Part shown: piece by piece, positions 6,608 to 37,420 of the stretch
How positions within the stretch are numbered: position 1 is the stretch's first letter
Layout: every line of letters begins with the position of its first letter
Assembly: GCA_020696385.1 (NCBI GenBank)
Contig: JAEHCQ010000001.1
Span: 129,003-193,002 of the forward strand
Origin: Methanobacteriota archaeon
GTDB lineage: Archaea > Thermoplasmatota > Thermoplasmata > SG8-5 > JAGLSY01
Direction of reading: 5' to 3'
Length of the DNA stretch: 64,000 nucleotides
Program-made: the position numbers and the translations under genes
The notes under the pieces: model-generated
What the model saw: the letters and a program-made list of their open reading frames with translations, nothing else
What the model was told of the DNA's origin: nothing
The model's database searches: none

Positions 6608-6925
6608 CCAGGTGGAGGTAGTAAGCCCCATTCTGTTTCTAAGCAGCATTCAACTACGCGTCCTACCAAATTTGGACTTGCACCGAATGGGAGTCGCCGT
6701 TTCATCATTTCCAAACCTTCGTAGCTCAGGGTCAACACCCATCATCGCTCCAGCCCGGCTGTGTCGTTTCTGCGCCCTTGCCATGCCTCTAAGCATACCG
6801 GCTTGAACCGGTCATTCATGTTTCACCCAAGATCACCGAAATGACTCAGGTGGGAGTGGGGACTTTCCTCGGTTGACTCAGGCGAACCTGAGTCCCCGTT
6901 AGCTGCTCACCTTCTCCTGGCATAT
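6606..6925 (-). ncRNA. rnpB: RNase P RNA (archaeal type A-like)
   Basis: The minus-strand RNA reads ...GGGGACUCAGG-UUCG-CCUGAGUC (a P3 hairpin with a UUCG loop) directly followed by GAGGAAAGUCCCC (CR-I, the 5' strand of P4). GGGUGAAAC follows about 45 nt later. ACAGAAUGGGGCUUAC near the 3' end (compare the bacterial ACAGAACCCGGCUUA) can pair with AAG-U-CCCC to form P4, with the bulged U. The 5' segment UGCCAGGAGAAGGUGAGCAGC can pair with the 3' segment GCUUACUACCUCCACCUGGCA to form P1. The region has no ORF and sits in a GC-richer island within an AT-rich spacer. The ends are approximate. Confidence 0.55.
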
Positions 6926-7325
6926 ATCCATTACCCGGGAGGATTATAACCCTTTCGGTTGGGGGACATGATAATCACTGGCCAAGCCATATCATTCACA
7001 ATTATACGAGATAGGCTATGATCGAATCCAATACTAATCATATGCTAATACCTAAATAACCTATACCTGTATTGGCAATAGTAATTTGTAACAATTAAAC
7101 TATTCATATTAACATTAACATACTCTTAAAGTAGTATTTGTGATAATGTAGAAACTATTATAAACATATATCTTATTTGTATGTTATATAGAAAAAGTGG
7201 GCCAGGGGGGCATATTGAGATAAATTTGAGGGGTATAGTAGCATTTTCTATGTTGACCTTATTTTTATTAACTGAGTGAGCCTAACAAAATACTCCTGCC
7301 TCATTGCAAAAAAAGAGGTGGAGAC

Positions 7326-10300
7326 ATGAAATACGCTCATAGCAGAAAGAGTAGTGTGGTAGCTTGCAGAATTTTGGCAATTTTCCTAATGATATCTTTG
7401 ATATCCCCAGGAATAGCCTCTGCGTCTAACAGTCTGATGGGGAATGATATCACTTCCCAGGGTCTGGTAGATATTGAACCAGTTATTAACGGAATGGTCA
7501 CTAATGATCATGATGCCGATGATGGGGGTGCTAGTCTATTCGGTGCCATAGGCGATACAACGAACTTTGATCACGATATCGAGGTTTCCAATATATTGTC
7601 TCCTGCGGATGCAGGGGTCTATCCCACGGATGCCGTCGAGATCAATGCCACCATAAAAAATCTAGGGATAGAAGAATCCTTTGATGTCAGGTATGAAGTC
7701 GGATATTATGATAATGCCAATACCATCTTTTTCCAGGATGATATGGAGGGGGGCAACAATGGATGGTCCCACTATGGATTCGGTGATGAATGGGAACGGG
7801 GATATCCTTCTGCTGGCCCAGGGTCTGCACATTCGGGCTTCAATTGCTGGGGAACTGACCTCAATTCATATTATTCAAATAATGCAGATCAATGGCTGGT
7901 GTCTCCATCCATCGATCTGACAGCTACAAGCACTGCCACCCTGTCCTTCTGGATGTATGTCAATATTGAGGGATATGTTTGGGATCATGCTTACGTGTAC
8001 ATAAATGACGGTGTGGATCATCAACTATATTACTCTGGCACAGGCTCTGGACCACATAACACAGCATGGCAATATTACGAGTACGATGTCTCAGCTTACA
8101 CTGGAGGCATGGTCACCTTGAAATGGAGACTGGATACTGATTCAAGTGTCACTTATACAGGGGTGTATGTGGACGATGTGACCATAAATACCACCATGGA
8201 CTCAAAGGTCATACTGCAAGAAGGAATAGAATCTGTTTCCAATCTTCCGGCTGGCGAATCCATGAATTTATTCGGTAGTTCTTACACTTTCACCACAGAA
8301 GGTGATAATTTCTACATGGATGTCGAGTCCCTATTGGCCTCAGACCAGGATACTTCAAATGATATAATGACAGCAAATTATACAATAGCCGATATTCATG
8401 ATGTTGGAGTATCTTCGATAAACTATCCAGAGAATGGAGAGCTTTACCCTATCGGTATGCAGGCGGTGAATGCCACAGTGATCAATAGTGGGACATTAAC
8501 AGAGAGCTTCCTGGTCCAGTGTACGATAAGAGATTCCTCCTATGCAATAGTATACTCGGATACAGAGAGTGTGACAGGAATGCCCTATGGCACAGAATCA
8601 ATAGTGACCTTCGCCCCTCAATGGAATGCCCTTGTAGAAGATGATTACACTATTGAGGTCATGACCATATTGGGCACTGATGAAGATCCATCCAATAACA
8701 ATCTGACAGGATCATTCACCATCGAGGATATAGAAGATGTTGGAACATCCGCTCTTAGATCTCCTGAAATAGGCAATTTCTACCGCGATGGAGCAGTGGA
8801 AATAGATGCTTCCGTGATCAATCACGGCAATGTTCCCCGATCCTTCATAACGAACTACACTATTGGCACAGCGACTGTGACAAATCAGAACATTTTCGTG
8901 GATGACTTTGAATCTGGAGCAATAGGCTGGACTCAAACCGGGGGTATACAGGGACAAAATACAATTGTGGATGAAAATTTTGATGGATCATTCCCTCCCG
9001 CTGGATGGAACGTTATAGATTATCAGGGCTGGGGAATGACCTGGTACCGGAATGATATGGTGGGTAGTGCTAATTATGCAGGAACTGGATTCTGCGCAGA
9101 TGCAGACAGCAGTGCCTTGTGGGGGCCTGGAGTTAATACAGGTCTGAGAACACCAAGCTTCAATTTGGTAGGCTACACAGATGCGACCCTGAATTTCTCA
9201 CATTCCTACCTTGACTTTACAATAGGGACTGGAGATTATGCAGAGGTCCGTGTGAGCACAAACGGCGGGTTCAGCTGGAGCCAGATAGCGTATTACAATG
9301 AGCAGCATTCTCCTTTTGGACCCGGTGAAGCTGTAAGCTTAAGCCTCAATGCCTTCCTAGGCCAGCCAAGTGTCACAGTGGAATTTCATTATGATGATTA
9401 TTCATGGGATTTCTGGTGGATGGTCGATGATGTCGAAATAATTGGAACCAGTGCTATGTCCCCTCAATGGCAATTGGGTGCTCCGGCCTTCGGAGATGTC
9501 ACAAATGCCCACGGCGGTACAAATTGCTGGGGAACAGATCTCATAGATAATTATTATCCAGATATGTCAGCCACACTTACCAGCCCGAGCTTCAGTCTTA
9601 GTGGCACTAGCAATGAGCGCCTTTCATTCTGGCACACTCACGACTTCTACAATACAGAAGCAGGTGGGATCGTGGAGGTATCGGTTGATAACCTACCATG
9701 GGTGAAAATAGACCCAATAGCGGGCGATTCATGGTACTCGACAAGCAATGCCTTCAGTGGTGCAGATGCTTTCACAGGAGACACATACCAGGATTGGTAT
9801 CAATCCACCTATGACATGACCCCTTTCAATGGCAGTAACAATGTTCGCTTGCGATTCAGTTTCCAATCCACATCAAATATAGCCTGTCATGAGGGATGGT
9901 ATATCGACGATGTAATGGTTACTGGCGAGATAATTTCTCTCAATAATATCATTGGTTGGGGAGATGAAATGGTCTCCAACTTGCAACCAGGAGAAGAAGT
10001 GGATGTATTCGGTAATTCCCACATCTTCACCAGTGAGGGAATGTACCACATCGAGGTAAAGACATTGCTGGCCTCAGATGAGGATAACAGTAATGATATC
10101 ATCAGTGGTTTCTTTGAGATCAAGAATGTCTTCGATGTAGGAGCGAGTGTCATAAATTCACCAGCAATTGGTGTAGCCTACCCAGTGGGAGCATTGGAGA
10201 TAAATGGAACAGTGACTAATTTCGGGAATGTTCCAGCCAGCTTCATAACCAATTATACAATAGGATCCATGAATGTCACATCCAATATCCTATATTCCGA

Positions 10301-13300
10301 TGATCTTGATTCGGGAGCGCTCGGATGGTGGACGTCTGATGGAGGGAATGAAGTCATTTATAATGAAGAGGGCAGCGGTACTGACTCGAGCAATTGGTAC
10401 TCAACACCTGGCGATGATCTATTCATATCTGCAGGAGATGGATTCTGTTATGATGTTAGTAGTACTACAGGGGATGGCATTTCATTATACTCATCCGGGA
10501 ATTTCATCACATTCGACCTCTCCGGGAATGCTGGGGCTGTTTTGGATATGTCACTGGACGCTTACTTATTCTATGGAACGTCATCCAGAGTGAAATATCT
10601 GGGAGTTTACGGGGGCTCAACTCCAGCAACATCATCTTTGATAGATGCCTCCAGCGCATATACAGTCTCCAATTCTGGATCAACTATTAGCTGGGATAAT
10701 ATCAATATACCGTCATCTCCGTATTATATCAAAATTCTGGTAGGATTCCCCTCCAGCCTTAACACTTTTGCTTTTGATAACTACACATTCAAATTAACTC
10801 AGCCAGGCTCTAGCTTTGAGATCGGAGCTCCATCATATGGAGATATCACAAATGCCAATAGCGGCGCAAATTGCTGGGGAACCGATCTTACAAGCAATTA
10901 TGTTCCGGACACCACCTGCAAGGTCACCTCACCAGCCTTCGATCTTTCCACAGGAACTGACAATGAAAAACTCAGTTTCTGGCATACACATGATTTCTAT
11001 AGCAGTGAAGGCGGTGGTATCGTGGAGATATCAACAGATAATTCCACATGGACCAAGGTCGATCCGATAGCAGGCGATACATGGTATTCCACAAGCAATG
11101 CTTTCAGTGGTGCAGATGCATTCACAGGAGATACATATCGAGATTGGTACCAATCCACCTTTGATCTGAGCCCCTTCAGTGGCAATAGTGATGTACGCGC
11201 ACGTTTCACTTTCCAATCCTCATCAGATCCAACATGCAATGAAGGATGGTACATCGATGACATCGTGGTAACTGGCGATATCATTGTTTTAAGCAGTATC
11301 ATTGATTGGGGAGACCAAATGGTATCCAACCTTCAGCCGGGAGAAGGTATCAATGTCTTTGGCAACACCTACACATTCACCAGCGAGGACACATATTACA
11401 TCCAGATGAATACACAGCTGGCAACTGATGAAGATAATACAAACGATCAGGTGGATGGATTCTTTTTGATAGATAATTTATACGATGTGGGAGTAGTTTC
11501 CATAGATTCACCACTTGATGGTGGAGTATACGGCGCATTATCAGTACCGATAGAAGCCACTGTTGAGAACTATGGTAATGTTCCAGTTAGCTTCATAACA
11601 AACTACACATTAGGAAATTACACACTTGATGAGATCTCGATACTAGAAGATGATTTCGAAGCTGGAGCCCCAGGTTGGGTTGCTACCGGAGGGATCATGG
11701 CCTTTGATGAATCGGATATTCAAGTGATATCTTTCCCCACCTTCAGTTCTGTACCAACTAACCATCCTTTCACATTTACATATCCAGCCACCGGCGCTGG
11801 AACCATATATCTCGACGCAAAGGATGGGGATTTTGATTCTACAGCCGAGTACATAGATGTATGGGCGGAGACCACGACCGGAACATATATTGGCCGGGGT
11901 CAGATCGGAGCGCAGAATAATCCCAACTGGATGCCCACAACGCCTCATTCGTGGACCGTGTCAGCAGCACAGATCAATGCATGGGGAGCAAGTGGGACGA
12001 TCAATATCGTATGCTCTTTTTCCTCAGGGGTCAATGACCTTGGAGGAGACAATGAGGTGAGAATAAGACTCACCTATCCCTCAGCGGTCACACCATGGGA
12101 ACTCGGAGTGCCTTTCAACCAGGATATAACTTCAGCTAATAGCGGAACAAATTGCTGGGGTACGGATCTGACAGCGAATTACATATCAGACAGCGAGGTC
12201 ACACTCACATCACCAAGCTTTGACCTAACTCCAAGTATGATGAACGAAGAGCTCAGCTTCTGGCACTCACATGATTTCTATAATACAGAGGCTGGGGGTG
12301 TGGTCGAGATATCCACTGACCCAGCACACACCACCTGGACAAAGATAGATCCGATAGCTGGAGATTCCTATTACAATTCATGCAATGCCTTTTCCGGAGG
12401 TACTGCCTTCACAGGTGATACTTATCGGGACTGGTATCAATCAACATTCGATCTGAGCGCGTACAGGAGCTACAATGATATCCAGATACGATTCAATTTC
12501 AAATCATCGACCTCGGCCACATGCCATGAAGGATGGTTCATTGACGATGTGAACATCACAGGGGTTGCCTTGGTAGGCATGAATGTACTGGACACCAAAG
12601 ACGAAATGGTTGTGAACCTACAGCCAGGAGAACAGTTCAATGTCTTTGGAAATACCTTTAATTTCACAAAAGAGGAATACTATTGGCTCAATGTGGAGAC
12701 CAGACTTGCAAATGATGAGATGAATAGCAATAATTACTCATCATCCTTATTTGAGATCTACAATTACGATGATGTAGAAATTGTCAGTATAGAGCCCTTT
12801 GATCAAAATATCATGTACCCGATCAGTATCTATTCTCCAAATGCCACTATAAGCAATATCGGCAATTACTATGCCTCAGGGTTCAATGTGACCTGCGATA
12901 TAAGAAATGGAATGGGAACCCTGGTCTATTCGGACACGGTGGCCATATCGACCATAATGTTGCCAGGGGAGACACGCACCATCGATTTCCTTGATTGGAA
13001 CGCACTCACGGAGACCGACTACATAATGACCATTCATATTGACTACGCCCTGGATGAGGACAGTTCCAATGATGATCTGGCAGTTGGTTTCATAATAGAA
13101 GATGTTTACGATGTGGGAGCTTATGACATAACAGGAATGGTGAATGGTGACACTTACACTACCGGAAGCTATGGCATCTCGACATTGGTAAGGAACTTCG
13201 GTAATATACCTCAACCGAGCTTCGACACAATATGCCAGATAACTGACTCACTTGGCATAACCGTTTACTCCAATATCCAAACAATTGGACTGATGCCGGA

Positions 13301-16300
13301 TGAAGAAGCGATGATATCTTTCACTCCAACCTGGGATGCTTTTGTAGAAGGAGTGTACACGATAGATTGCTTCACATTGCTAGCAGGTGATGAGTTCAAT
13401 ACAAATAATGGAACCCAGATCACCGTGATAATAAACGATATCTATGATGCCACGGTCTTATCCATCGATTCTCACACAAATGGAGACACTTACCCAACTG
13501 GCGAACAACGCATAACTGCGAATATCGGTATATTGGGTAATGTGCCAAGCCCTTCTTTCGTGGTGGCGTGTACGGTGACCAGTTCCACCAATAATCAAGT
13601 ATACTACGATGAAGAAACTGTTCCAGCAGGACTGTCACCAGGAGCCTTTGTGGATATATTGTTCTCACCTTTCTGGAACGTCAATGTGGAGGACACATAC
13701 CACATCTCGGTGGAAACCAGATTATTGGGCGATGAAGTACCGACCAATGATCAAATGGACATCATGATATTCATCGACGATATCTACGATCTGGGTATTG
13801 TTTCAATGGATCCATTTGTCAATAGTGGTTCATACCCGATAGATACATACCAACTAGAGGCGACTGTACAGAATCTGGGTAATGTTCCAACATCTGGATT
13901 CGAGGAAGTGTATTTCGAGATCCAAGATGACATGGGCATACCTTTGTACAACAATACGGTAATGATAGGAAGCGGACTGCTCCCAGGAGATACTGAGACC
14001 ATTGTCGTTTGCCCTGAATGGAATGCCTCGATCGAAGGCATCTATTACCAGTATGCCACAACGACAATGGCAATAGACCACAACACAGCGAATGACGATA
14101 TGCTCATATGGATGGAGATAGACGATGTGCTGGATCTGGAGGTCACTTCTATTGATACTTTTACCAATGCTGGCACTTATCCAGGAGGAAGTTACACCAT
14201 AAATGCCACACTGTCCAATTTGGGACATCTGGATATCATGAACCAATTGGTGGAATGCAAGGTCGCTTCTTCCAGTGGAACGGTCGTCTACACAAGCCAA
14301 TACACATTACCTTCTCTGGCTGCAGGGAATTCAACCCAGATAACCTTCACACCAGACTGGGCGATCAATATCGAAGACACCTACATCGTGCAGGTCTGGA
14401 CAGCCCTCACTGGCGATGAGAACCCAGGTAATGATCTGAGAAGCATGGTGATATATCTGGACAATCTACACGATGCAGAGGCATTGTCCATAGAGACCTT
14501 CATCGATGGAGGGGTGTATTATGCAGATTCATACTTTGTGAACGGCACTATCTGGAACAATGGTAATGTACCCATATCGGGATTTGATGTTTCTGTCACT
14601 GTGATCGACTCATCCAATACCCAGGTCTATTACTCCACGACCACGATCTCATCCCTTCTATTGCCAGGAGAGAATGCCAATGTCTCGATCCAGCCAGCCT
14701 GGATACCGACTCAGCCAGATACATACAGGATCAAACTGAGGACCACCCTATCGGGCGATGAAGTCCCTTCGAACGATGAGATAGAATACATGATTCAGAT
14801 CGAAGGACATGATGTGGGAGCCATAGATATTCCTGGCTTCACAAACAATGCCACATACAATACTGGAACCTATCAGGTAGATGGGATAATCAAGAACTTC
14901 GGAAGCTTGCAGGAGAATGATGTGGGAGTCACATGCGATGTACGAGACTCCACTAATGCCATAGTGTTCACGACCACTCACATTATACCATCCATCAACC
15001 CAAGTGAGGAAGTGGCATTTACTTTTGCGACGAACTGGACAGTGGCGATCGAGGATACATACACCATAGAGGTCTTCACCACACTGAACTATGACCTTAT
15101 CACCATTAATGATCTAACATCCAGATCGATCATCATAGATGATCTCCATGATATCGCGGTCATATCCAGCGCCCCCTTCGTAGAAGGAGGTACTTATTCG
15201 GCAGGCACATACTCGATAAATGTCACCCTGGACAATCTGGGAGACATAGATGAGGCCAATGTACTGGTAAACTGCACTATCGTAGACTCACTCAGTACCA
15301 TCGTTTACAGCTCGGAGTTCACAATACCATCAATATCCAACATGCAGACCATATCCTTCACACCCGACTGGAATGCCATGATACTGGATGATTACACAAT
15401 GACAATATCGGTTATATTCCCGACAGATGAGAATGCGGCAAATGACATACTCACTGTCAACTTCACTATCGGTATTTATCACGATATTGCCATGATCGGA
15501 ACCCCCACCTTCCTTGATGGAGGGATCTATCCAACTGGTTCATATGCCATGAAAGCGGTCATTGAGAATATTGGAACCGAAACAGAGTCGCCTGTTTTCA
15601 TAGCCTGTGAGATATTTGACTCGAGTAACACTTCAGTATATATGAGCCTGGGAGGAGTGGGGATCGTCAATTCTGGTGATCAGGCAGAGGCCACTATCGG
15701 CCTTATATGGAATGCACTGATAGAAGGAGATTATACCATCAAACTTGATGCGATCCTACCCACGGATCAGAATATGGCCAATAATCAGTTCATCATAAGC
15801 ATATCAATAGATGATAAGCATGATATCGCGGTGACTGATATCCAAACCTTCCTTGATGGAGGAATCTACAGCACTGGCACCTACACTATAAATGCCACCG
15901 TGGAAAATGCAGGAACCTCTCTGGAAAACAATATCATGGTCAACTGTACCATCAGAGATTCGTTGAATGTGATTGTGTATTCGTCAGAATACACAATCAC
16001 ATCAATGGACTGGGGAACCAGCATGGACATAATTTTCCTACCTAACTGGACAGCGAATATTGAGGAAGATTATACGATCAGCGTCACTTCATATCTCGCC
16101 ATCGATGATGACAATACCAATAATCAGACCCTGAACACCTTCACCATCGATGAATTCCACGATATCGTGGTAACTGGCATGGGTCCCTTCACAGAAGGAA
16201 GCTCATACAATCAGGGTGATTACAACATAACAGCCGACATAGTCAATAATGGATCTATAGAGGATACGAATATCCTGATCAACTGCACCGTGACTGACGG

Positions 16301-19300
16301 AATTGGCACCATCGTTTATTGGGATGAAGTAACTGTAGCCTCCTTGCTTTCCGGAGAGAATACCACAGTGACCTTCCTGCCATGGACTGCTGATTCGGAA
16401 GATAATTTCACGATTACCATAACCTCATCCCTGGCCAATGATGATAATACCATCAATGATGTAATGGCATGCCATATCGTCATTGATGATTATCACGATA
16501 TAGCATTGACTGGCTTCGGACCTTTCATTGACGGTGGCGTATACCAGACAGGGACGAATACCATGACCGCCTCGATAACGAACATGGGCACTATCGCGGA
16601 GATCGATATCACTGTAAATTGCATAATTTATGATTCCACGATGTCCATTGTGTATTTCAGAAATTCATTCATACCTCTCATCAATCCCGGCCAGACGATC
16701 ATCGTGACCTTCAGCCCGGATTGGACAGCGAATATTGAGGATGATTATAGGATATATTATGAATGCTGGCATCCACTGGATGATGATCCAACAAATGATA
16801 TTGAAAATATCTACATAACCGTGGATGAGTACCATGATATTGGTCTTACGACCACGCAACCTTTTGCAGATCTCGGAGTTTATCCAGCTGGAACCTACAC
16901 GATCGATGTGTCAATAGAGAATTTGGGAACTATCGACGAGTACGGCATGGAAGTTGTGTGCATGATCATCGATTCTTCCAGTGGTGTTGTTTACAGCCAG
17001 AACCTGACGATCGCCTTCATCGCCATGGGAGATACTATGATAATAACCTTCATTCCAGACTGGATACCATCAGCAGACGATTCCTACACGCTGATAGCCA
17101 CCGTGGGACTGGCCAATGATGAGAACATTATCAATGACCAGCACTCCACCCTGTTCTACATAGACATGACACCACCCACTGCAGATCCAGGACCTGATGA
17201 TTTCACCTTTGAGGATTCCATATATTTCTTCGATGGCACAGGCTCCTATGATCAACATGGTATCATGAATTACACATGGGACTTCGGAGATGGACAGATC
17301 GGATATGGGCCAGCACCAGATCACACATATTCCCTCCAGGGCATCTACTTCATCAATCTGACAGTGGCTGATGCCATGGGATTGACAGACACGAATATGA
17401 TGACCCTCATGGTCAATAATGTGAATCCGACAGCTGATGCTGGAATGGATATATCTATTCCAGAAGGTGATATTGTTAACTTCGACGCTTCAAACTCAAC
17501 TGACACGATATCCGATATACCCACCCTTGTTTACACATGGGACTTCGGGGATGGTAATACATCCAATTTGATGACCCCCGCTCACACATATTATTCTTCA
17601 GGAACCTACATGGTCACCCTGGAGGTCATGGACGATGATGGAGCGATCAGTTATGCTTACATCAATGTGACCGTGATAAATGTGGGACCAATAGCCGTTC
17701 CAGGAGGACCATACATGGATGATGAGGGAACCATCATATCCTTTGACGCTTCGGGATCTTATGAGCCTGGAAGCGACATCATACTCTATGAATGGGACTG
17801 GAACAATGACGGCATCTATGATGAGAGCTCGGTCGGACCATCAGCGAACCACACATGGTATGCCGCTGGTGTTTACGCCATATCACTGAAGGTCACTGAT
17901 GAGGATGGTCATTCACACGAAACAGGCACCAATGTGACGATAAATGATGTAGCTCCTGTTTCCGTACATGGAGGTCCATACAGCGGAAATGAAGGAACTA
18001 TCATAACCTTCAATGGCAGCAGCTCCTACGAACCAGGTGATGATATCACACTCTATGAATGGGACCTGGACAATGATGGAACATTCGAGACCATCGGCAT
18101 GGAAGTCAGTATGTCCTGGTTCACCGCCGGTGTCTACACGGTCGGACTCAGGGTGACAGACGAGGATGGTTCCTCCGATATTTCCACAACGACCGTGGAT
18201 GTCATTGACGTGGCCCCGGTCGCGATAATAATCGGAGGATCTATAGTGGTGGAGGAAGGAGAATCCATAATACTGGATGGCTCAAATTCCTATGAACCGG
18301 GAGATGATATAATTCTGTATGAATGGGATATGGATAATGATGGAACATTCGATCATACCAGCATCTCACCTCTCTTTGTCAATAATTGGGGCGCTCCTGG
18401 AACCTATACTGTCCTTCTCCAGGTAACGGATGAGGACGGATCGGTAGGTAACGAAACGACCATGATCATCATATCGAATGTGATGCCGATCGCCGATCCA
18501 TCTGGACCATACCAGGGATCTGAAGGACAGGCGATCTCATTCAATGCCGGAGCCTCTTATGAGCCTGGTGATGATATAATTCTGTATGAATGGGACTGGA
18601 ACAATGACGGGGTATATGATGAGAGCTCGGCAGTTCCAGGTATCACACACCAATGGGACGTCCCAGGAACCTACACCCTGCGCCTCATGGTCACTGATGA
18701 CGATGGTACAACGGACATGGCAATGACAACTGTGGTTGTTCATAATGTGGCTCCGATCCCAGTTCCTGGCGGACCTTATTCTGATCTTGAAGGAGCGGCG
18801 ATTGTCTTTGATGCCAGTGGTTCCATCGAGCCAGGTGATGACATACTGCTCTATGAGTGGGACTTTGACAATGATGGAATATTTGATTCCATATCCGGAA
18901 GCCCATTATCATCCATGACATGGTATTCGGCAGGGATGTTCAATGTCCTTCTAAGAGTGACAGATGCGGATGGATCCTCGGGTATGGCCACCGTGATGGT
19001 GACCATTTCAGATGTAGCCCCTGTTGCGGTTCTCGGTGGACCTTACACAGGTGATGAAGCATCGTCTGTCATGTTGGATGCTTCGGCATCCTCCGAAATA
19101 GGCAATGATATCATTCTCTATGAATGGGACTGGAACAATGATGGAACATATGACTTCAGTTCCAGCAACCCATGGGCTGCAAACACATGGTACACCTCAG
19201 GTGCTTACACCGTGTGGCTGAAAGTGACAGATGAGGAAGGATCAATTGATCTGTCTTCAGCAGTGGTGAATGTCAATGATATCGCCCCAACAGCCGATGC

Positions 19301-22037
19301 TGGCGATCCACAGGTTTGTAATGAGGAAGAACTCATAATACTGGATGGATCTGGTTCTACCGAACCTGGCGACGATATCGTCCTTTACGAATGGGACTTC
19401 GATGATGATGGAACATATGACTTCAGTTCCAGCAACTTCTGGGCCATAAACATCTGGAGCCTACCAGGAACTCATATTGTGACGCTCAGGGTGACAGATG
19501 CGGATGGATCTTCGGATATGTCGTTGACGACGATTGTCGTCAACGACATAGCTCCTGTTGCAGTAGCTGGCGGACCTTACCAGGGTTCGGAAGGCCAGAC
19601 CGTTTCATTCAGTGCCGAGGCATCTTATGAGCCTGGTGATGATATCATTCTCTATGAATGGGATTGGAACAATGACGGAGTTTATGAGGATAGCTTTGCC
19701 ACCTCGGGTGTGACACATACCTGGGACTCGGCTGGCACCTACATAATACGCCTCATGGTGACAGATGTGGATGGTTCCACGAATATCGCCACGACCACGG
19801 TGGAGATCATGGATATTGCCCCGGTCGCCATGCCAGGCGGACCGTATTCCGAAACTGAAGGAACAGCCATTAACTTCGATGCTTCAGCCTCTTATGAGCC
19901 TGGAAATGATATAATTCTGTATGAATGGGACTTTGATAATGATGGGGTATTTGATTCCATATCCGGAGATCCAATGTCTTTCTGGACATGGGACTCAGCA
20001 GGTGTTTCCAATATCCTTCTCAGGGTCACGGATTCGGATGGATCAACAGATACCGCGACGGTCATTGTCACTGTTTTGGATGTGGCTCCTGTCGCGGTGC
20101 TCGGAGGACCTTACACCACGGATGAAGGAATATCCATAAGGTTCGATGCTTCAGCCTCTTATGAGCCTGGAAATGATATCGTTCTGTATGAATGGGATAT
20201 AGATAATGATGGAGCATATGATGTTTCATCATCCGACCCATGGACAGACCATACCTGGAACACGGCCGATGTCTACGTCATCGGCCTTCGTGTGACTGAT
20301 TCGGATGGTTCACACGATGAGATCACCGTGACAGTCACTGTCAATGATCAGGCTCCTGTCGCGATAGCGGGTGGACCATATTCATGCAATGAGGGCGAAC
20401 TCCTTGTACTGGATGCTGGAGATTCTACAGAACCTGGAGATAATATCATATCGTACGAATGGGATATGGACAATGACGGGGTCTTTGAAGAGAGTTATAC
20501 CATACCTTATCTCATGCACACGTGGTACACACCAGGAACTTACACAGTGGGACTCATGGTCACAGATACAGATGGTTCTACAGATACTATCACCCTGGAT
20601 GTCCTTGTACAGAACATCGCCCCGGTGGCGGATCTATCCGGACCTTATCAGGGATCGGAAGGGCAATTGATATCATTCAATGCCGAGGCCTCCTATGAGA
20701 TCGGTGATGACATCGTTCTGTATGAATGGGATTGGAACAATGATGGAGCATATGACATTGAGACCGATGTGGCTGGTGCGAACCATCAATGGGATGAGCC
20801 CGGAACCTACACCCTGCGTCTCAGAGTGACTGATGAAGATGGTTCTTCTGATACGACCACGACCTCTATCGAGATAGGCCATGTGGCTCCGACAGCCGTA
20901 CCTGGAGGACCTTATTCATGCAATGAGAGCGAGGTATTGGTATTCGATGTTTCAGCCTCTTATGAGCCTGGTGATGATATCGTCCTGTATGAATGGGACC
21001 TGGACAATGATGGAATCAATGACGTGGTATCATCACAGCCAGTATGCTCCTATTCCTGGGATTCAGCTGGTCAAGTATCGGTCTATCTGAAGGTGACCGA
21101 TTCTGACGGTTCAACCGACATTGTGATATTCTCGGTCATGATATATGACATCGCCCCAACCGCGATGATCGTATCTGGACAATCTGGAGATGAGGCCTCA
21201 CCAATGGCCTTCGATGCTTCAGCTTCCCATGAGCCAGGTAATGATATAATTCTGTATGAATGGGATTGGAACGGGGACGGTATCTTCGACCTCATTGATC
21301 CTTCGCCATGGGCTCAGAATACCTGGTACACACCCGGCAACTATACTGTTTGGCTGAGGGTGACGGACGAGGAAGGATCCTATGACCTGGCAAGCATGAA
21401 CATCACCATCGAGGATCTGGATGACATCGATGGCGATGGATTCCTGGATATTTGGGAAGAAGCACTTCATACGGACCCACTGGACCCATATGACATGCCC
21501 ATCGATACAGACAATGACGGCATGCCAGATGGGGACCACTACAATAGCCAGATGTGGATGGACAATGATGACGACAATGACGGTGTCCTTGACAGTGGTG
21601 ATTCAGCTCCAACCGACGACTCGAAATACAAAGAGCCAACCGCCTGGGATAACTGGTGGTGGCTGGCACTTCTGCTAACTATCATCCTCATACTGTTGAT
21701 CGTACTGATCATCCTGTACCTCATGGAAGAGGAAGAGGAAGAAGAGGAAGAAGAAGAAGAGCTTGATGATGAGGAATTCGAAGAGGAATATGAGGAAGAG
21801 TTCGAAGATGAGCTCGCAATGGGAGCTTATGAAGCTGAAGAACCCGAAATGGAAGTCGATGAGGAACCCGAGATGGAGTTCGAAGAGGAAGAAGCCCTGG
21901 AGATGGATATCGATGAAGAACCATCATTGGACGAAAGGACCCAGATCCTTCTGGAGAAACTGGAAAACCTTTACCAGGATGGAAAGATAAAAGAGGATAC
22001 ATACATCAATAACAAGGAAAAACTGTTGGGGAATTAA
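7326..22037 (+). CDS. Giant (4903 aa) type-I membrane-anchored surface protein. Domain order: signal peptide; four jelly-roll (MAM/ConA-like) modules; about 14 CARDB repeats; about 16 PKD repeats; a DxDxDG calcium-binding (TSP3-like) segment; a transmembrane helix; a poly-Glu cytoplasmic tail
   Basis: Single ORF from the track. N-terminus: MKYAHSRKSSVVACRILAIFLMISLISPGIASASN. Recurring blocks NCWGTDL...LSFWHTHDFY...EGWYIDDV. CARDB-like 105-110 aa repeats between about aa 1770 and 3270. PKD repeats with the signature YEWDWNNDGxYD...VTDEDGS. DIDGDGFLD / DTDNDGMPDGD / DNDDDNDGVLD. WWWLALLLTIILILLIVLIILYLM followed by an EEEEEEEEEEEE tract. The SD-like motif GAGGTGGAGAC sits before the ATG. Confidence 0.9.
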   Translation: MKYAHSRKSSVVACRILAIFLMISLISPGIASASNSLMGNDITSQGLVDIEPVINGMVTNDHDADDGGASLFGAIGDTTNFDHDIEVSNILSPADAGVYPTDAVEINATIKNLGIEESFDVRYEVGYYDNANTIFFQDDMEGGNNGWSHYGFGDEWERGYPSAGPGSAHSGFNCWGTDLNSYYSNNADQWLVSPSIDLTATSTATLSFWMYVNIEGYVWDHAYVYINDGVDHQLYYSGTGSGPHNTAWQYYEYDVSAYTGGMVTLKWRLDTDSSVTYTGVYVDDVTINTTMDSKVILQEGIESVSNLPAGESMNLFGSSYTFTTEGDNFYMDVESLLASDQDTSNDIMTANYTIADIHDVGVSSINYPENGELYPIGMQAVNATVINSGTLTESFLVQCTIRDSSYAIVYSDTESVTGMPYGTESIVTFAPQWNALVEDDYTIEVMTILGTDEDPSNNNLTGSFTIEDIEDVGTSALRSPEIGNFYRDGAVEIDASVINHGNVPRSFITNYTIGTATVTNQNIFVDDFESGAIGWTQTGGIQGQNTIVDENFDGSFPPAGWNVIDYQGWGMTWYRNDMVGSANYAGTGFCADADSSALWGPGVNTGLRTPSFNLVGYTDATLNFSHSYLDFTIGTGDYAEVRVSTNGGFSWSQIAYYNEQHSPFGPGEAVSLSLNAFLGQPSVTVEFHYDDYSWDFWWMVDDVEIIGTSAMSPQWQLGAPAFGDVTNAHGGTNCWGTDLIDNYYPDMSATLTSPSFSLSGTSNERLSFWHTHDFYNTEAGGIVEVSVDNLPWVKIDPIAGDSWYSTSNAFSGADAFTGDTYQDWYQSTYDMTPFNGSNNVRLRFSFQSTSNIACHEGWYIDDVMVTGEIISLNNIIGWGDEMVSNLQPGEEVDVFGNSHIFTSEGMYHIEVKTLLASDEDNSNDIISGFFEIKNVFDVGASVINSPAIGVAYPVGALEINGTVTNFGNVPASFITNYTIGSMNVTSNILYSDDLDSGALGWWTSDGGNEVIYNEEGSGTDSSNWYSTPGDDLFISAGDGFCYDVSSTTGDGISLYSSGNFITFDLSGNAGAVLDMSLDAYLFYGTSSRVKYLGVYGGSTPATSSLIDASSAYTVSNSGSTISWDNINIPSSPYYIKILVGFPSSLNTFAFDNYTFKLTQPGSSFEIGAPSYGDITNANSGANCWGTDLTSNYVPDTTCKVTSPAFDLSTGTDNEKLSFWHTHDFYSSEGGGIVEISTDNSTWTKVDPIAGDTWYSTSNAFSGADAFTGDTYRDWYQSTFDLSPFSGNSDVRARFTFQSSSDPTCNEGWYIDDIVVTGDIIVLSSIIDWGDQMVSNLQPGEGINVFGNTYTFTSEDTYYIQMNTQLATDEDNTNDQVDGFFLIDNLYDVGVVSIDSPLDGGVYGALSVPIEATVENYGNVPVSFITNYTLGNYTLDEISILEDDFEAGAPGWVATGGIMAFDESDIQVISFPTFSSVPTNHPFTFTYPATGAGTIYLDAKDGDFDSTAEYIDVWAETTTGTYIGRGQIGAQNNPNWMPTTPHSWTVSAAQINAWGASGTINIVCSFSSGVNDLGGDNEVRIRLTYPSAVTPWELGVPFNQDITSANSGTNCWGTDLTANYISDSEVTLTSPSFDLTPSMMNEELSFWHSHDFYNTEAGGVVEISTDPAHTTWTKIDPIAGDSYYNSCNAFSGGTAFTGDTYRDWYQSTFDLSAYRSYNDIQIRFNFKSSTSATCHEGWFIDDVNITGVALVGMNVLDTKDEMVVNLQPGEQFNVFGNTFNFTKEEYYWLNVETRLANDEMNSNNYSSSLFEIYNYDDVEIVSIEPFDQNIMYPISIYSPNATISNIGNYYASGFNVTCDIRNGMGTLVYSDTVAISTIMLPGETRTIDFLDWNALTETDYIMTIHIDYALDEDSSNDDLAVGFIIEDVYDVGAYDITGMVNGDTYTTGSYGISTLVRNFGNIPQPSFDTICQITDSLGITVYSNIQTIGLMPDEEAMISFTPTWDAFVEGVYTIDCFTLLAGDEFNTNNGTQITVIINDIYDATVLSIDSHTNGDTYPTGEQRITANIGILGNVPSPSFVVACTVTSSTNNQVYYDEETVPAGLSPGAFVDILFSPFWNVNVEDTYHISVETRLLGDEVPTNDQMDIMIFIDDIYDLGIVSMDPFVNSGSYPIDTYQLEATVQNLGNVPTSGFEEVYFEIQDDMGIPLYNNTVMIGSGLLPGDTETIVVCPEWNASIEGIYYQYATTTMAIDHNTANDDMLIWMEIDDVLDLEVTSIDTFTNAGTYPGGSYTINATLSNLGHLDIMNQLVECKVASSSGTVVYTSQYTLPSLAAGNSTQITFTPDWAINIEDTYIVQVWTALTGDENPGNDLRSMVIYLDNLHDAEALSIETFIDGGVYYADSYFVNGTIWNNGNVPISGFDVSVTVIDSSNTQVYYSTTTISSLLLPGENANVSIQPAWIPTQPDTYRIKLRTTLSGDEVPSNDEIEYMIQIEGHDVGAIDIPGFTNNATYNTGTYQVDGIIKNFGSLQENDVGVTCDVRDSTNAIVFTTTHIIPSINPSEEVAFTFATNWTVAIEDTYTIEVFTTLNYDLITINDLTSRSIIIDDLHDIAVISSAPFVEGGTYSAGTYSINVTLDNLGDIDEANVLVNCTIVDSLSTIVYSSEFTIPSISNMQTISFTPDWNAMILDDYTMTISVIFPTDENAANDILTVNFTIGIYHDIAMIGTPTFLDGGIYPTGSYAMKAVIENIGTETESPVFIACEIFDSSNTSVYMSLGGVGIVNSGDQAEATIGLIWNALIEGDYTIKLDAILPTDQNMANNQFIISISIDDKHDIAVTDIQTFLDGGIYSTGTYTINATVENAGTSLENNIMVNCTIRDSLNVIVYSSEYTITSMDWGTSMDIIFLPNWTANIEEDYTISVTSYLAIDDDNTNNQTLNTFTIDEFHDIVVTGMGPFTEGSSYNQGDYNITADIVNNGSIEDTNILINCTVTDGIGTIVYWDEVTVASLLSGENTTVTFLPWTADSEDNFTITITSSLANDDNTINDVMACHIVIDDYHDIALTGFGPFIDGGVYQTGTNTMTASITNMGTIAEIDITVNCIIYDSTMSIVYFRNSFIPLINPGQTIIVTFSPDWTANIEDDYRIYYECWHPLDDDPTNDIENIYITVDEYHDIGLTTTQPFADLGVYPAGTYTIDVSIENLGTIDEYGMEVVCMIIDSSSGVVYSQNLTIAFIAMGDTMIITFIPDWIPSADDSYTLIATVGLANDENIINDQHSTLFYIDMTPPTADPGPDDFTFEDSIYFFDGTGSYDQHGIMNYTWDFGDGQIGYGPAPDHTYSLQGIYFINLTVADAMGLTDTNMMTLMVNNVNPTADAGMDISIPEGDIVNFDASNSTDTISDIPTLVYTWDFGDGNTSNLMTPAHTYYSSGTYMVTLEVMDDDGAISYAYINVTVINVGPIAVPGGPYMDDEGTIISFDASGSYEPGSDIILYEWDWNNDGIYDESSVGPSANHTWYAAGVYAISLKVTDEDGHSHETGTNVTINDVAPVSVHGGPYSGNEGTIITFNGSSSYEPGDDITLYEWDLDNDGTFETIGMEVSMSWFTAGVYTVGLRVTDEDGSSDISTTTVDVIDVAPVAIIIGGSIVVEEGESIILDGSNSYEPGDDIILYEWDMDNDGTFDHTSISPLFVNNWGAPGTYTVLLQVTDEDGSVGNETTMIIISNVMPIADPSGPYQGSEGQAISFNAGASYEPGDDIILYEWDWNNDGVYDESSAVPGITHQWDVPGTYTLRLMVTDDDGTTDMAMTTVVVHNVAPIPVPGGPYSDLEGAAIVFDASGSIEPGDDILLYEWDFDNDGIFDSISGSPLSSMTWYSAGMFNVLLRVTDADGSSGMATVMVTISDVAPVAVLGGPYTGDEASSVMLDASASSEIGNDIILYEWDWNNDGTYDFSSSNPWAANTWYTSGAYTVWLKVTDEEGSIDLSSAVVNVNDIAPTADAGDPQVCNEEELIILDGSGSTEPGDDIVLYEWDFDDDGTYDFSSSNFWAINIWSLPGTHIVTLRVTDADGSSDMSLTTIVVNDIAPVAVAGGPYQGSEGQTVSFSAEASYEPGDDIILYEWDWNNDGVYEDSFATSGVTHTWDSAGTYIIRLMVTDVDGSTNIATTTVEIMDIAPVAMPGGPYSETEGTAINFDASASYEPGNDIILYEWDFDNDGVFDSISGDPMSFWTWDSAGVSNILLRVTDSDGSTDTATVIVTVLDVAPVAVLGGPYTTDEGISIRFDASASYEPGNDIVLYEWDIDNDGAYDVSSSDPWTDHTWNTADVYVIGLRVTDSDGSHDEITVTVTVNDQAPVAIAGGPYSCNEGELLVLDAGDSTEPGDNIISYEWDMDNDGVFEESYTIPYLMHTWYTPGTYTVGLMVTDTDGSTDTITLDVLVQNIAPVADLSGPYQGSEGQLISFNAEASYEIGDDIVLYEWDWNNDGAYDIETDVAGANHQWDEPGTYTLRLRVTDEDGSSDTTTTSIEIGHVAPTAVPGGPYSCNESEVLVFDVSASYEPGDDIVLYEWDLDNDGINDVVSSQPVCSYSWDSAGQVSVYLKVTDSDGSTDIVIFSVMIYDIAPTAMIVSGQSGDEASPMAFDASASHEPGNDIILYEWDWNGDGIFDLIDPSPWAQNTWYTPGNYTVWLRVTDEEGSYDLASMNITIEDLDDIDGDGFLDIWEEALHTDPLDPYDMPIDTDNDGMPDGDHYNSQMWMDNDDDNDGVLDSGDSAPTDDSKYKEPTAWDNWWWLALLLTIILILLIVLIILYLMEEEEEEEEEEEELDDEEFEEEYEEEFEDELAMGAYEAEEPEMEVDEEPEMEFEEEEALEMDIDEEPSLDERTQILLEKLENLYQDGKIKEDTYINNKEKLLGN

Positions 22038-25205: not shown

Positions 25206-26212
25206 TGGACATCCTTCTTATCAACAATAGCAGGAAGGGATTGGGCGGCACCGCCAGTTACACCAGGCAGATGCAGAAGCATTTCAAGGCCGATCTTTTA
25301 GAACCGGAAGATGAAATGAGTGATATCAGATTCCTTATCAAGCTAATGTTAATGAAAAAGCCTTCCGGGAAGGTGATCCACGCCCAGCTTCCGATCTACG
25401 CATTACCCTTTTCTTTCAGAAAGAGGAATAAGATCGTGATCACCCTGCATGGGGACAATATGAAGGCGATGACCAGGAAACACGGTCGCTTCATTGGTAA
25501 CATGTACAGGATAATGGAATTCATGGCTCTGCGCCGTTCTGATCGGATCATCGCTGTCGATGATTCTACTTCTTCAGCTTATTCAAAAAGGGATCCGAAC
25601 CTGGGGATCATAACGATCCCGGTTGGCATAGACCTGAACCATTTCAAGCTCCTGGACAAGGATAAGGCAAGAACGAAGTTCAGTCTCACTGGCAAGGTCA
25701 TCATGTACGTCGGCAGGCTGAGAGCGGATAAAGGTGTGGACATTCTGATCAAGGCGCATGAACTTGTCAGGAAGCAAGTTCATGATCTCGAGCTCGTGAT
25801 AGTTGGTGAGGGTAAGGACTCTGCCAGTCTGAAGGAAATGGCTGGTGATGATGTCAAATTCTTTGGCTTCAGAAAAGCTCAAGAAATTCCAGAGATAATG
25901 AACTGCGCGGATGTGTTCGTCATTCCCTCTCTGTATGAGTCCGGCCCCCTTGTAGTTCCAGAAGCCATGGCTTGTGGTGTTCCGTGTGTGGGCACGGATG
26001 TCGGGCGCATGAGGGAATTTATCAGTGATGATAGGTGCGGGAGGATCATCGATAGGAATGTGGAAGCGGTTGCCAGTATGATCATCGAAGTTATCAAAGC
26101 TGGAGATTCGAGAGAACATTGCAATAAAGCGGCCCAGGAATTCGGATTCGCCAAAACAGCGGACGAAACATTAAAAATCTACGAGAGTTTATTCATACAA
26201 GGAAGTGCCTGA
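25205..26212 (+). CDS. GT4-family glycosyltransferase
   Basis: C-terminal VIPSLYESGPLVVPEAMACGVPCVGTDVG (EX7E-type GT4 motif). GTG start overlapping the previous TAG stop. Confidence 0.8.
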   Translation: MDILLINNSRKGLGGTASYTRQMQKHFKADLLEPEDEMSDIRFLIKLMLMKKPSGKVIHAQLPIYALPFSFRKRNKIVITLHGDNMKAMTRKHGRFIGNMYRIMEFMALRRSDRIIAVDDSTSSAYSKRDPNLGIITIPVGIDLNHFKLLDKDKARTKFSLTGKVIMYVGRLRADKGVDILIKAHELVRKQVHDLELVIVGEGKDSASLKEMAGDDVKFFGFRKAQEIPEIMNCADVFVIPSLYESGPLVVPEAMACGVPCVGTDVGRMREFISDDRCGRIIDRNVEAVASMIIEVIKAGDSREHCNKAAQEFGFAKTADETLKIYESLFIQGSA

Positions 26213-26215
26213 GCG

Positions 26216-27859
26216 ATGAGAACCTTCAAATTATCCCGGAATGTGGTCTTATTGGCCCTGTTGTTCATCATAGTGCTGAACGTCGCCATGAGGTATCCCA
26301 CGACACCTCACGAGATAGGTGACGACGGGTTCATGAACCAAGCACTGGCGAAGTACATCACGCAGGAAGGATACGCTTCCTGGCATACCAGTGTGTTCTC
26401 CTTCTTCGGGCTTGGTTCTTTCACCTACCCTGCGGGGTACCAGTTCGTATTATCCGAGGTCTCACAGCTGACTGGCTTCAGTTTGGAGGTCAGTGTGTTT
26501 GTCATTTCCACCTTGGTAGGAGTGTTTGGGGCCTTGTTCGCTTTCATAATGACCAGGGAGATATTCCAGGATGACTTCACCGCTCTGCTTGGAGCTTTTA
26601 TTTTCTCAACCGCTCCGCTTTTCCTTAGAATAACAAATTGGAATGCCTCTGCGAGGCAGTTGTTGCTTATGTACATACCACTTCTGGTCTTCTTACTTCT
26701 ACGAACAGACCTGGTAAAGAAAGCAGAGAAAAAGAACTTCATTGGCAAGGAAGTTTACATGGCATTGACATTGATATTATTACTTACGATGGGGATGATC
26801 CACAGATTGGCAATATACCTCTTCCTTGTAATAGTTGCTTTCATGTTCTCGATGATTCTTTTTAAAATGAAAAGAGCCTACACGATAAGAAAAGGAGTAT
26901 TGACCTTCAGAAAGCATGACATAGCGATGATGACCTTCCTGATGCTATGGGGACTGATGATTACTGGATTTATATACATGCAACTGAGTAATTTCGGCCC
27001 TTATGCAGGTATGAATTTATGGTATAAATATCAGAGTGGATTTCTTTTTTCAGGGAGTGACATTCGGACTATATTCATCAATATGGCAATTGATTATGCA
27101 ACTAGTTTTGGCATACTATCTGCTTTCGGTGTTCTTGGAGCAATTTACATGTTCCAAAAAAGAGAGAAAAATTATGGCTTTACATTCGTCGTTCTTTCTA
27201 TGTTGATACTATCTCCATTATACACAATCGGTCTATACACCCAGATACTTGTATTCACATTTTTCTTTGTTATAATGGTAGTAGGCATAGCAGGCTTGTT
27301 GAATAACAAAAAAATAAGAAAGATAGCAATGCCTATGCTAGTCATTATTATTATTTCTTCAGTAGGGTTTTCAGGCTTCATGATCGGGCATTGGCAATCA
27401 TCTGTAGGTGGAAATTACATGACTGAAAGCGAGTTTAATGCAGCTCTTTATGCCCATGAATATATCAATGATAATGAAACTTTTGTAACTAACAATCAAG
27501 TTTTTGGAAATAGAGTTATTGGGGTTGCAGATGCACAGTTTTTGACAGAAGATTTCGCGTATCCATTGATATATGGCTGGGTTGATAAAGAAGAAGCAAA
27601 AAGAGAATTTGATTTGGATAAAATGATCGAGGAAAAATCAATTATTGTAGTCAGTAATCTGGAAAAAGAAATTCTACACAATGCACGTGCAATAATTTTA
27701 TCAGATATTGATGAAACTTTTGCCCTTCAAAGATATTATACTGTGAAATATTCAATAGAAAATACAAAGGCCTTATCAAGTTACACAGCAGAGGAAAGCA
27801 TACATTCAAAGCGCTATTGTTTGTATTCAAATGGTATACAAAGTATATGGAAATTGTGA
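26216..27859 (+). CDS. Polytopic membrane protein, GT-C-fold glycosyltransferase-like (ArnT/PMT-like), not AglB
   Basis: About 12 predicted transmembrane helices. The first extracytoplasmic loop has HEIGDDGF (a DD motif as in GT-C enzymes). A C-terminal soluble domain of roughly 170 aa. There is no WWDYG motif, so it is not an STT3/AglB oligosaccharyltransferase. Confidence 0.45.
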   Translation: MRTFKLSRNVVLLALLFIIVLNVAMRYPTTPHEIGDDGFMNQALAKYITQEGYASWHTSVFSFFGLGSFTYPAGYQFVLSEVSQLTGFSLEVSVFVISTLVGVFGALFAFIMTREIFQDDFTALLGAFIFSTAPLFLRITNWNASARQLLLMYIPLLVFLLLRTDLVKKAEKKNFIGKEVYMALTLILLLTMGMIHRLAIYLFLVIVAFMFSMILFKMKRAYTIRKGVLTFRKHDIAMMTFLMLWGLMITGFIYMQLSNFGPYAGMNLWYKYQSGFLFSGSDIRTIFINMAIDYATSFGILSAFGVLGAIYMFQKREKNYGFTFVVLSMLILSPLYTIGLYTQILVFTFFFVIMVVGIAGLLNNKKIRKIAMPMLVIIIISSVGFSGFMIGHWQSSVGGNYMTESEFNAALYAHEYINDNETFVTNNQVFGNRVIGVADAQFLTEDFAYPLIYGWVDKEEAKREFDLDKMIEEKSIIVVSNLEKEILHNARAIILSDIDETFALQRYYTVKYSIENTKALSSYTAEESIHSKRYCLYSNGIQSIWKL

Positions 27860-27864
27860 ATTAT

Positions 27865-29016: not shown

Positions 29017-29020
29017 TCCT

Positions 29021-29731: not shown

Positions 29732-29754
29732 ATAAATATGATCCGGGTGCCCAA

Positions 29755-30918: not shown

Positions 30919-30919
30919 T

Positions 30920-32248: not shown

Positions 32249-32249
32249 T

Positions 32250-33862: not shown

Positions 33863-33898
33863 ATGAAATGTGAGTATATTACAGCCATAAAAAATTGC

Positions 33899-35074: not shown

Positions 35075-35089
35075 CTTGCTTTTATTGAT

Positions 35090-35737: not shown

Positions 35738-35740
35738 TTA

Positions 35741-37246: not shown

Positions 37247-37420
37247 ACACTTGCATTGAGTTTTAGTTTGATATAAATAAGTTTCCATTTTAATGATTGA
37301 AAATGCATGCCAGTTAATGAAGAAAAAAACGAAAGGTTTAAGTGCGATTATATATATGTAGCATATAACGTGGTTGACCAGGTGGAGATTAGTCAACTAA
37401 ATATAAAGGAGTGAGGATAT

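Follow-up and report, generated by a model that had tools for sequence, protein, structure and literature searches.

Related systems

Giant Ca2+-dependent repeat adhesins of bacteria, such as MpIBP, LapA, SiiE and BapA, have a long extender chain of immunoglobulin (Ig)-like domains with Ca-binding motifs, and in gingipain-adhesin complexes HagA is said to supply adhesin domains. Giant surface proteins built from CARDB and PKD domains are also an already known kind. Here, a 64-kb stretch of DNA (contig JAEHCQ010000001.1 of assembly GCA_020696385.1, positions 129,003 to 193,002, hereafter the window) was analyzed, and within it a 14.7-kb gene whose 4903-residue product is referred to as the giant protein. 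With a probability of roughly 0.6, this protein of an uncultured Thermoplasmatota archaeon is exported by Sec as a type I membrane protein and, within a small family that combines gingipain and adhesin parts on a surface tether, takes the non-catalytic role of capture or adhesion. Its unusual features are a three-level nesting, in which jelly rolls sit within CARDB domains and further domains (cargo) within jelly rolls, the interchangeability of that cargo, and a relation to giant proteins headed by a C25 peptidase; no description of this combination was found in the literature searched.

The giant protein resembles the gingipain polyproteins of Porphyromonas gingivalis (Kgp, RgpA, HagA) in its predicted cell-surface location and in its jelly rolls, which match the fold of the Kgp adhesin domains K1, K2 and K3 (Foldseek, E = 2.5e-6 to 5e-4, TM-score on target 0.42–0.58). 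Propeptide_C25 and Peptidase_C25 are found not in the giant protein but in its closest homolog, P0020, and in the more distant Thermoplasmata proteins P0001, P0002, P0005 and P0012, where the peptidase is fused to the same CARDB/jelly-roll units. It differs further in its archaeal host, in being anchored by a transmembrane (TM) helix rather than a type IX secretion system C-terminal domain, and in having a 29-domain CARDB/PKD stalk and jelly rolls nested in CARDB. Against the gingipain Cleaved_Adhesin family (PF07675), insert 2 scored 13.9 bits, below the cut-off of 21.4, and the similarity is at fold level only.

The jelly rolls belong with the InhA-like MAM/choice-of-anchor J domains of secreted bacterial peptidases, by cut-offs of profile hidden Markov models (HMMs) and by their MAM-type fold. 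Module 1 passed both PF20773 (40.4 bits versus 26.9) and NF038128 choice-of-anchor J (45.5 versus 30), with InhA2 and eukaryotic MAM domains as top structural matches; the module 2 unit was borderline on PF20773 (28.0 bits versus 26.9), and modules 3 and 4 are tied to InhA-like MAM only via 59–66% amino-acid identity to module 2. Unlike in those peptidases, the domain of the giant protein is not a C-terminal appendage but lies in a CARDB hairpin, and modules 2–4 carry a whole extra domain in the first loop. With MpIBP, LapA, SiiE and BapA, as generally understood, the giant protein would share the design logic of a Ca-motif Ig-like chain that projects ligand-binding modules from the cell. It differs from them in having no RTX repeats, type I secretion signal or N-terminal retention module by Pfam at E ≤ 0.01, and in its predicted Sec export, C-terminal TM anchor and N-terminal, distal binding head, in an archaeon without an outer membrane.

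Nested domains in the head

The giant protein was scanned with Pfam, and in-house HMMs were then iterated on the protein itself to resolve the repeat units; whole-protein self-BLAST gave only the identity match, and the iterated HMMs were used instead. Pfam reported CARDB (PF07705, 87.7 bits versus a cut-off of 22.7), PKD (PF18911/PF00801; PKD_4 in 16 stretches, E = 7e-204, 660.9 bits versus a cut-off of 27) and InhA-like MAM, and the in-house HMMs resolved exactly 16 PKD units, 14 intact CARDB units and four split CARDB units. The gene and its head comprise the following features:

7326..22037, + strand: complete open reading frame (ORF), 4903 residues plus stop, product very acidic (D+E 15.8%, K+R 1.8%)
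7572..8336, + strand: module 1, split CARDB (residues 83–139 and 271–337) around a MAM-like jelly roll (residues 140–270, nt 7743–8135)
8358..8672, + strand: intact CARDB, residues 345–449 (in-house HMM, 117.6 bits, profile positions 1–106)
8694..10070, + strand: module 2, split CARDB (residues 457–528 and 860–915) around a scaffold jelly roll hosting insert 2
10092..11420, + strand: module 3, split CARDB (residues 923–993 and 1309–1365) around a scaffold jelly roll hosting insert 3
11442..12707, + strand: module 4, split CARDB (residues 1373–1431 and 1745–1794) around a scaffold jelly roll hosting insert 4
11694..12089, + strand: insert 4, residues 1457–1588

The CARDB domain is split in all four modules, with profile positions 1 to ~70 matched before the jelly roll and ~47 to 106 after it (14–70 and 37–106 in module 1), and because these eight partial matches pair around the jelly rolls, each jelly roll is placed within one CARDB domain. 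The insertion point is the CARDB hairpin that reads '..C.IRDSS..VY..' in intact units. An identical split is present in the Thermoplasmata proteins P0001, P0002, P0005, P0011 and P0020, and was not found among bacterial proteins, whose CARDB matches are intact.

A further level of insertion is seen in modules 2–4, where the first jelly-roll strand, 'DDFExGxxGW', is parted from 'WELGxP..NCWGTDL' by 172, 154 and 132 residues, respectively; the jelly roll of module 1 is continuous and has no third-level insert. The three inserts share a single insertion site, the loop that links the 'DDFExGxxGW' strand to 'WELG', and are mutually unrelated. Insert 2 (residues 541–712, nt 8946–9461) is itself a MAM-like jelly roll, of FPPAGW type, and is homologous to residues 1822–1986 of P0001 (E = 2.8e-38), where the domain sits directly in a split CARDB. 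Insert 3 (residues 1008–1161, nt 10347–10808) is an orphan, with no Pfam match and no homolog in a word-indexed protein search. At the level of sequence profiles, the nesting pattern is CARDB, then jelly roll, then cargo.

Structure models and fold matches

AlphaFold2 (AF2) models were made for module 4 (435 residues) and module 1 (269 residues). For module 4, predicted local distance difference test (pLDDT) values are 84–97 in the scaffold and both parts of the CARDB domain, and 44–61 in insert 4; the module 1 model has a pLDDT of 83, its CARDB halves and jelly roll spanning 66–97. The N-terminal half of the CARDB domain was modeled with four strands and the C-terminal half with three, and two long strands (model residues 56–77 and 371–400) continue from CARDB into the jelly roll. 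Judged by profile coordinates, strand counts and pLDDT, the two CARDB halves probably pack in one sandwich.

The scaffold profile had no match among PDB sequences. By structure, using Foldseek, the jelly roll matched the MAM-like domain of Bacillus anthracis InhA2, the MAM domains of meprin and neuropilin and carbohydrate-binding modules (CBMs), in addition to the Kgp cleaved-adhesin domains. These matched folds are all ligand-binding beta-sandwiches.

Homologs

The scaffold profile was searched against 1.84 billion representative proteins. The scaffold domain family is large (5918 representative proteins at E ≤ 1e-3), and its top match is P0020 (4582 residues, 775 bits; runner-up 335 bits), encoded on the 41.6-kb contig DAOWAO010000005.1 of GCA_030634565.1. 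Among the best 150 of the 5918 matches, only P0020 joins the scaffold, split CARDB hosts, third-level inserts and C25. Scanning of species-representative genomes returned a fragment 99.9% identical to the P0020 gene (L001, from the Thermoplasmata archaeon RS_8_37 metagenome-assembled genome (MAG)), a 4.7-kb contig that lies wholly within a P0020-type gene and ends where the CARDB stalk begins. A scan of metagenomes with scaffold patterns gave 145 pattern matches, none of which was confirmed as a relative. Look-ups of the exact sequences of the giant protein, agmatinase and aIF5A were also negative, which means that the collection searched does not contain the window.

P0020 and the giant protein have in common three modules in which CARDB, jelly roll and insert are nested, a CARDB stalk and a PKD array with YEWDxDNDG; the scaffolds are 60–70% identical, the CARDB stalk 41% and the PKD array 52%. 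It differs in carrying an N-terminal Propeptide_C25 and Peptidase_C25 where the giant protein has module 1, in its tail, which is not poly-Glu, and in its genomic neighborhood. Repeat number, which the initial annotation had proposed comparing between homologs, also differs, with 12 PKD units versus 16 and nine stalk CARDB units versus 13. At the three corresponding insertion sites, the inserts of P0020 and L001 had no detectable similarity to inserts 2–4; one of the P0020 inserts is another MAM-like roll, and the other two are orphans.

No peptidase C25 (PF01364) was detected in the giant protein by Pfam. Since its own catalytic domain is absent while its closest homolog adds C25 to the same body, the giant protein is best seen as the non-catalytic member of the family. 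A tblastn search of the whole window with the C25 parts of P0020, P0001 and P0012 gave no match other than the P0012 jelly-roll insert, and a degraded C25 remnant upstream of the giant gene was rejected as a candidate on this basis. P0012 is an archaeal C25 peptidase of 1455 residues, in which a jelly roll at residues ~553–680, sharing 55% identity with the module 1 jelly roll, lies inside the catalytic domain.

P0024 (3854 residues) carries, at residues 1003–1306, the scaffold together with insert 4, at 63% identity over 306 residues, and the host of this cassette is the hairpin of a different, non-CARDB Ig-like repeat, also a beta-sandwich. A module-1-like jelly roll at residues 1613–1781 of P0024 likewise lies in a non-CARDB Ig-like hairpin; the protein has a Gly-rich N-terminal region and a Pro-rich tail. 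A C-terminal cassette of TSP3-like repeats, TM helix, low-complexity tail and SHOCT-like end is common to the giant protein, P0020 and P0024.

P0020 was considered as an ortholog and rejected, as the window and the P0020 locus lack synteny, and it is hence referred to as the closest homolog; it may be a paralog. The FtsZ neighborhood is conserved in the genome of P0020, although the giant loci are not syntenic.

Stalk, membrane anchor and tail

Outside the head, the protein is made up as follows:

7326..7424, + strand: signal peptide, residues 1–33 (MKYAHSRKSS...LISPGIASA), with a basic n-region, hydrophobic core and ASA motif
12729..17105, + strand: stalk part 1, 13 consecutive intact CARDB units, residues 1802–3260 (in-house HMM)
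17172..21389, + strand: stalk part 2, 16 PKD units, residues 3283–4688 (Pfam and in-house HMM)
21417..21605, + strand: three TSP3-like DxDxDG repeats next to the membrane, residues ~4698–4760 (motif; PF18884 on the segment alone)
21654..21722, + strand: TM helix WWWLALLLTIILILLIVLIILYL, residues 4777–4799, with the highest hydropathy in the protein
21723..21929, + strand: acidic low-complexity tail, predicted to be cytoplasmic, starting with 12 Glu codons (GAA/GAG) at 21726–21761
21930..22034, + strand: conserved C-terminal SHOCT-like motif (DERTQILLEKLENLYQDGKIKEDTYINNKEKLLGN), which also ends P0020 and P0024

PKD units 1 and 2 carry WDFGDG, and units 3–16 instead carry YEWDx[DN]xDGx[FY][DE]. 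The motif Dx[DN]xDG occurs in those 14 PKD units and in the three TSP3-like repeats, giving 17 loops in all. The bacterial TSP3 model PF18884 scored 28.3 bits on the C-terminal segment alone and 21.7 bits on the whole protein, against a cut-off of 25. A hydropathy scan gave exactly two strongly hydrophobic segments, at residues ~8–30 and 4777–4799, which correspond to a signal peptide at the N-terminus and a single TM helix close to the C-terminal end, as in type I single-pass proteins. The predicted topology is a signal peptide, a huge ectodomain, one C-terminal TM helix and an acidic cytoplasmic tail.

The TM helix is followed by 104 residues, 52 of them acidic and 6 basic. Sorting signals of the archaeosortase/exosortase type end within a few residues of the TM helix, in contrast to this long tail, and no NCBIfam model of such signals (PGF-CTERM, PEF-CTERM, PEP-CTERM) matched the last 215 residues of the giant protein at E ≤ 1. 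The C-terminal motif stayed below the gathering cut-off of SHOCT (PF09851; 14.9 bits versus 27, E = 0.022).

Much of this layout had been proposed in the initial annotation and was upheld: a single 14.7-kb ORF of 4903 residues, a signal peptide and a TM helix, about 14 CARDB and 16 PKD repeats, MAM/ConA-like jelly rolls, DxDxDG Ca-binding loops, and a type I topology, which follows from the sequence. The split-CARDB nesting, the inserts in three of the jelly rolls and the C25 peptidase of the closest homolog had been missed.

Proposed function and alternatives

The giant protein would be exported by Sec and held by one TM anchor at its C-terminal end, with the N-terminus facing outward. Its stalk of 13 CARDB domains, 16 PKD Ig-like domains and three TSP3-like repeats would project the four MAM/cleaved-adhesin-like jelly rolls, each in the C-C' hairpin of a CARDB domain, and could reach ~100 nm when extended, assuming Ig-like domains of typical size. 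The 17 Dx[DN]xDG loops probably bind Ca2+, as their motif suggests, which would stiffen the stalk. Three of the jelly rolls would bear, at the distal tip, a mutually unrelated domain in the first hairpin loop, and the jelly rolls and tip cargo are most likely the ligand-binding surfaces, for protein or glycan on particles or cells. The SHOCT-like helix that closes the variable low-complexity tail may oligomerize or dock the giant protein. The family as a whole plausibly serves the capture, and in some members the hydrolysis, of detrital polymers.

Several points weigh against this interpretation. The signal peptide and TM helix were called from the sequence and a hydropathy scan, and the tail behind the TM helix is acidic, not basic, which is unusual under the positive-inside rule. 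The predicted template modeling (pTM) scores of the AF2 models are just 0.59–0.66, and the confidence of insert 4 is low. As the P0020 locus is not syntenic, the insert differences may reflect old paralogy rather than recent swapping.

A broader and more tentative proposal, which we hold to be possible and somewhat short of an even chance, is that the MAM-like jelly roll is a domain-display scaffold. It would nest in varied beta-sandwich hosts (CARDB, and the Ig-like repeat of P0024), its first loop would accept unrelated domains that are exchanged between homologs, and this three-level module would diversify the ligand specificity of surface-tethered gingipain/adhesin proteins that capture detrital polymers. 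If the tips set ligand specificity, the family would show how uncultured sediment Thermoplasmatota recognize and hold particulate substrates, and a scaffold that tolerates whole-domain insertions may interest protein engineers.

The giant protein could instead be part of a surface proteolytic machine, in which it recruits or positions separately encoded secreted peptidases or binds detrital protein for them. This is consistent with the C25 fusions of P0020, P0001, P0002, P0005 and P0012, with the jelly roll shared between module 1 and the C25 domain of P0012, with the match to the Kgp adhesin fold, and with the extracellular C25 and other peptidases that sediment Thermoplasmata encode and express (PMC6461988, PMC9123169), protein degradation by sediment Thermoplasmatota being debated (PMC9123169, PMC6461988). 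Searching the window with C25 domains by tblastn revealed no peptidase gene, Pfam having covered part of its ORFs, and the proposal overlaps with non-catalytic capture or adhesion, from which it differs in ligand only; we consider it unlikely as a separate explanation.

Slightly less probable again is a passive envelope or coat, in which the acidic and possibly glycosylated protein would form a mucin- or S-layer-like protective or hydrating layer, with the repeats as bulk. The composition is acidic in the extreme, with 10.2% D and 5.6% E against 0.7% K and 1.0% R, the window encodes several other surface proteins, and the protein has 55 N-x-S/T sequons, with a glycosyltransferase island 4–16 kb downstream. 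The sequons, however, are not enriched (55 observed versus 58.6 ± 6.7 in shuffled sequence), and a special N-glycosylation link to the island was dropped for this reason. Furthermore, the folds of the head (MAM, cleaved adhesin, CBM, Eph ligand-binding domain) bind ligands wherever structures exist, the combination of conserved scaffolds with variable tips resembles specificity modules rather than filler, and the protein has only one TM anchor and lacks any known S-layer domain.

Integrity of the gene and divergence of its repeats

Giant repeat proteins are often written off as problems of assembly, or classed as adhesins and nothing more, and the initial annotation had held the internal repeats to be near-identical in nucleotide sequence, open to ongoing expansion and contraction by recombination, and prone to assembly collapse. 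Codon-aware alignments gave 59–70% nucleotide identity for jelly-roll modules 2–4, and identity was 55% on average (maximum 71%) among PKD units and 47% on average (pairwise, maximum 58.5%) among CARDB units. The longest exact repeat inside the gene is 38 nt, and Tandem Repeats Finder returned only the Glu tract and a 24-nt unit present 2.3 times. Since the repeats have diverged to 47–71% identity with no exact repeat above 38 nt, standard reads can place them uniquely, and both assembly collapse and frequent homologous recombination are unlikely; the premise of high-identity repeats behind the two claims fails. The jelly-roll motifs quoted in the initial annotation are present (NCWGTDL four times, at residues 173, 733, 1182 and 1609; SFWH[TS]HDFY three times; EGW[YF]IDD three times), but modules 2–4 are not near-identical. 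Likewise, a 26-mer quoted for the PKD repeats and said to recur at least six times has two exact occurrences, and five when up to two mismatches are allowed. Identity within the PKD array is raised at lags of 4 and 8 units, which suggests that four-unit PKD blocks were duplicated anciently.

The ORF is uninterrupted from 7326 to 22037, with 4903 codons and a stop. Two independent assemblies of the P0020 gene (one of them L001) agree over 4736 bp of the head at 99.9% identity and with no gaps, which indicates that heads of this kind assemble reproducibly. The poly-Glu tract, described earlier as able to slip, was confirmed as 12 Glu codons; it is an imperfect mix of GAA and GAG and in frame, and slippage would therefore alter the length of the tail only. 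An artefact of assembly, with repeats collapsed, expanded or chimerically joined so as to create the gene or alter its repeat number, or a contingency locus that changes length rapidly by recombination or slippage, might be suspected from the 34 Ig-like repeats in the gene, the broken homolog gene in one MAG (L001) and the varying repeat numbers of homologs, and is very improbable given the divergence of the repeats, 14.7 kb without a stop or frameshift, the collinear homolog assemblies and the imperfect, in-frame Glu tract. The giant gene is sound, and its repeats are old and diverged.

Gene context and host

The start of the gene is preceded by one further feature:

7315..7321, + strand: Shine-Dalgarno-like GAGGTGG, 4 nt 5' of the ATG at 7326, read from the sequence

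The intergenic DNA 5' of the gene is AT-rich. RNase P RNA of the archaeal type (RF00373, 134 bits, full length) is encoded at 6610..6918 (−), ~400 bp upstream, and aIF5A (22133–22519) and agmatinase (22516–23349) lie downstream; because these genes adjoin the giant gene, the host is an archaeon. The FtsZ encoded in the window is 93% identical to that of the NCBI MAG GCA_020697715.1, 80% identical to that of GCA_030634565.1, and 60–63% identical to sequences labeled as Thermoplasmatota or Ca. Proteinoplasmatales.

The window is syntenic from 42.7 to 64 kb with GCA_020697715.1 (L005, contig JAEHCO010000006.1) at ~78% nucleotide identity. Judged by distance, the position of the giant gene would be expected in the first ~11 kb of this 77.9-kb contig, which may end inside the gene. 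The syntenic part includes a 1020-residue AAA_16 ATPase with a long TPR array (STAND/MalT-like) at 42757..45819 (+), which is conserved in L005.

Downstream of aIF5A and agmatinase, a low-GC island at ~26000..38000 (0.32–0.39 versus ~0.45 elsewhere) encodes many GT4 glycosyltransferases, a methyltransferase and a DUF6541-like membrane protein, and looks like a variable surface-glycosylation island. Three further predicted surface proteins with a signal peptide and a C-terminal TM anchor are encoded at 56867..58696 (+), 38464..40365 (+) and 48411..50402 (−). Their tails differ: one is Gln/Pro-rich, one belongs to a CARDB protein and is basic and ~100 residues long, and the third protein, with beta-helix/NosD and Big_5 domains, ends in MKRK, which suggests that the organism uses several anchor types. 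A 1104-residue ORF at 60590..63904 (−) has DUF11 repeats, an odd GR/GK-rich N-terminus and the C-terminal end VIPEFSSVLPLALGIMGITFIGFRRRKEVI; this end resembles a sorting signal of the PEF/PEP-CTERM type and scored 14.0 bits with NCBIfam PEP_CTERM, below the threshold of 16; the counterpart of this ORF in GCA_020697715.1 is longer than 2300 residues. In a more distant relative (L007/L008, FtsZ 79% identical), an IS240-type DDE transposase lies just upstream of the conserved FtsZ block (L007, 8347–8880).

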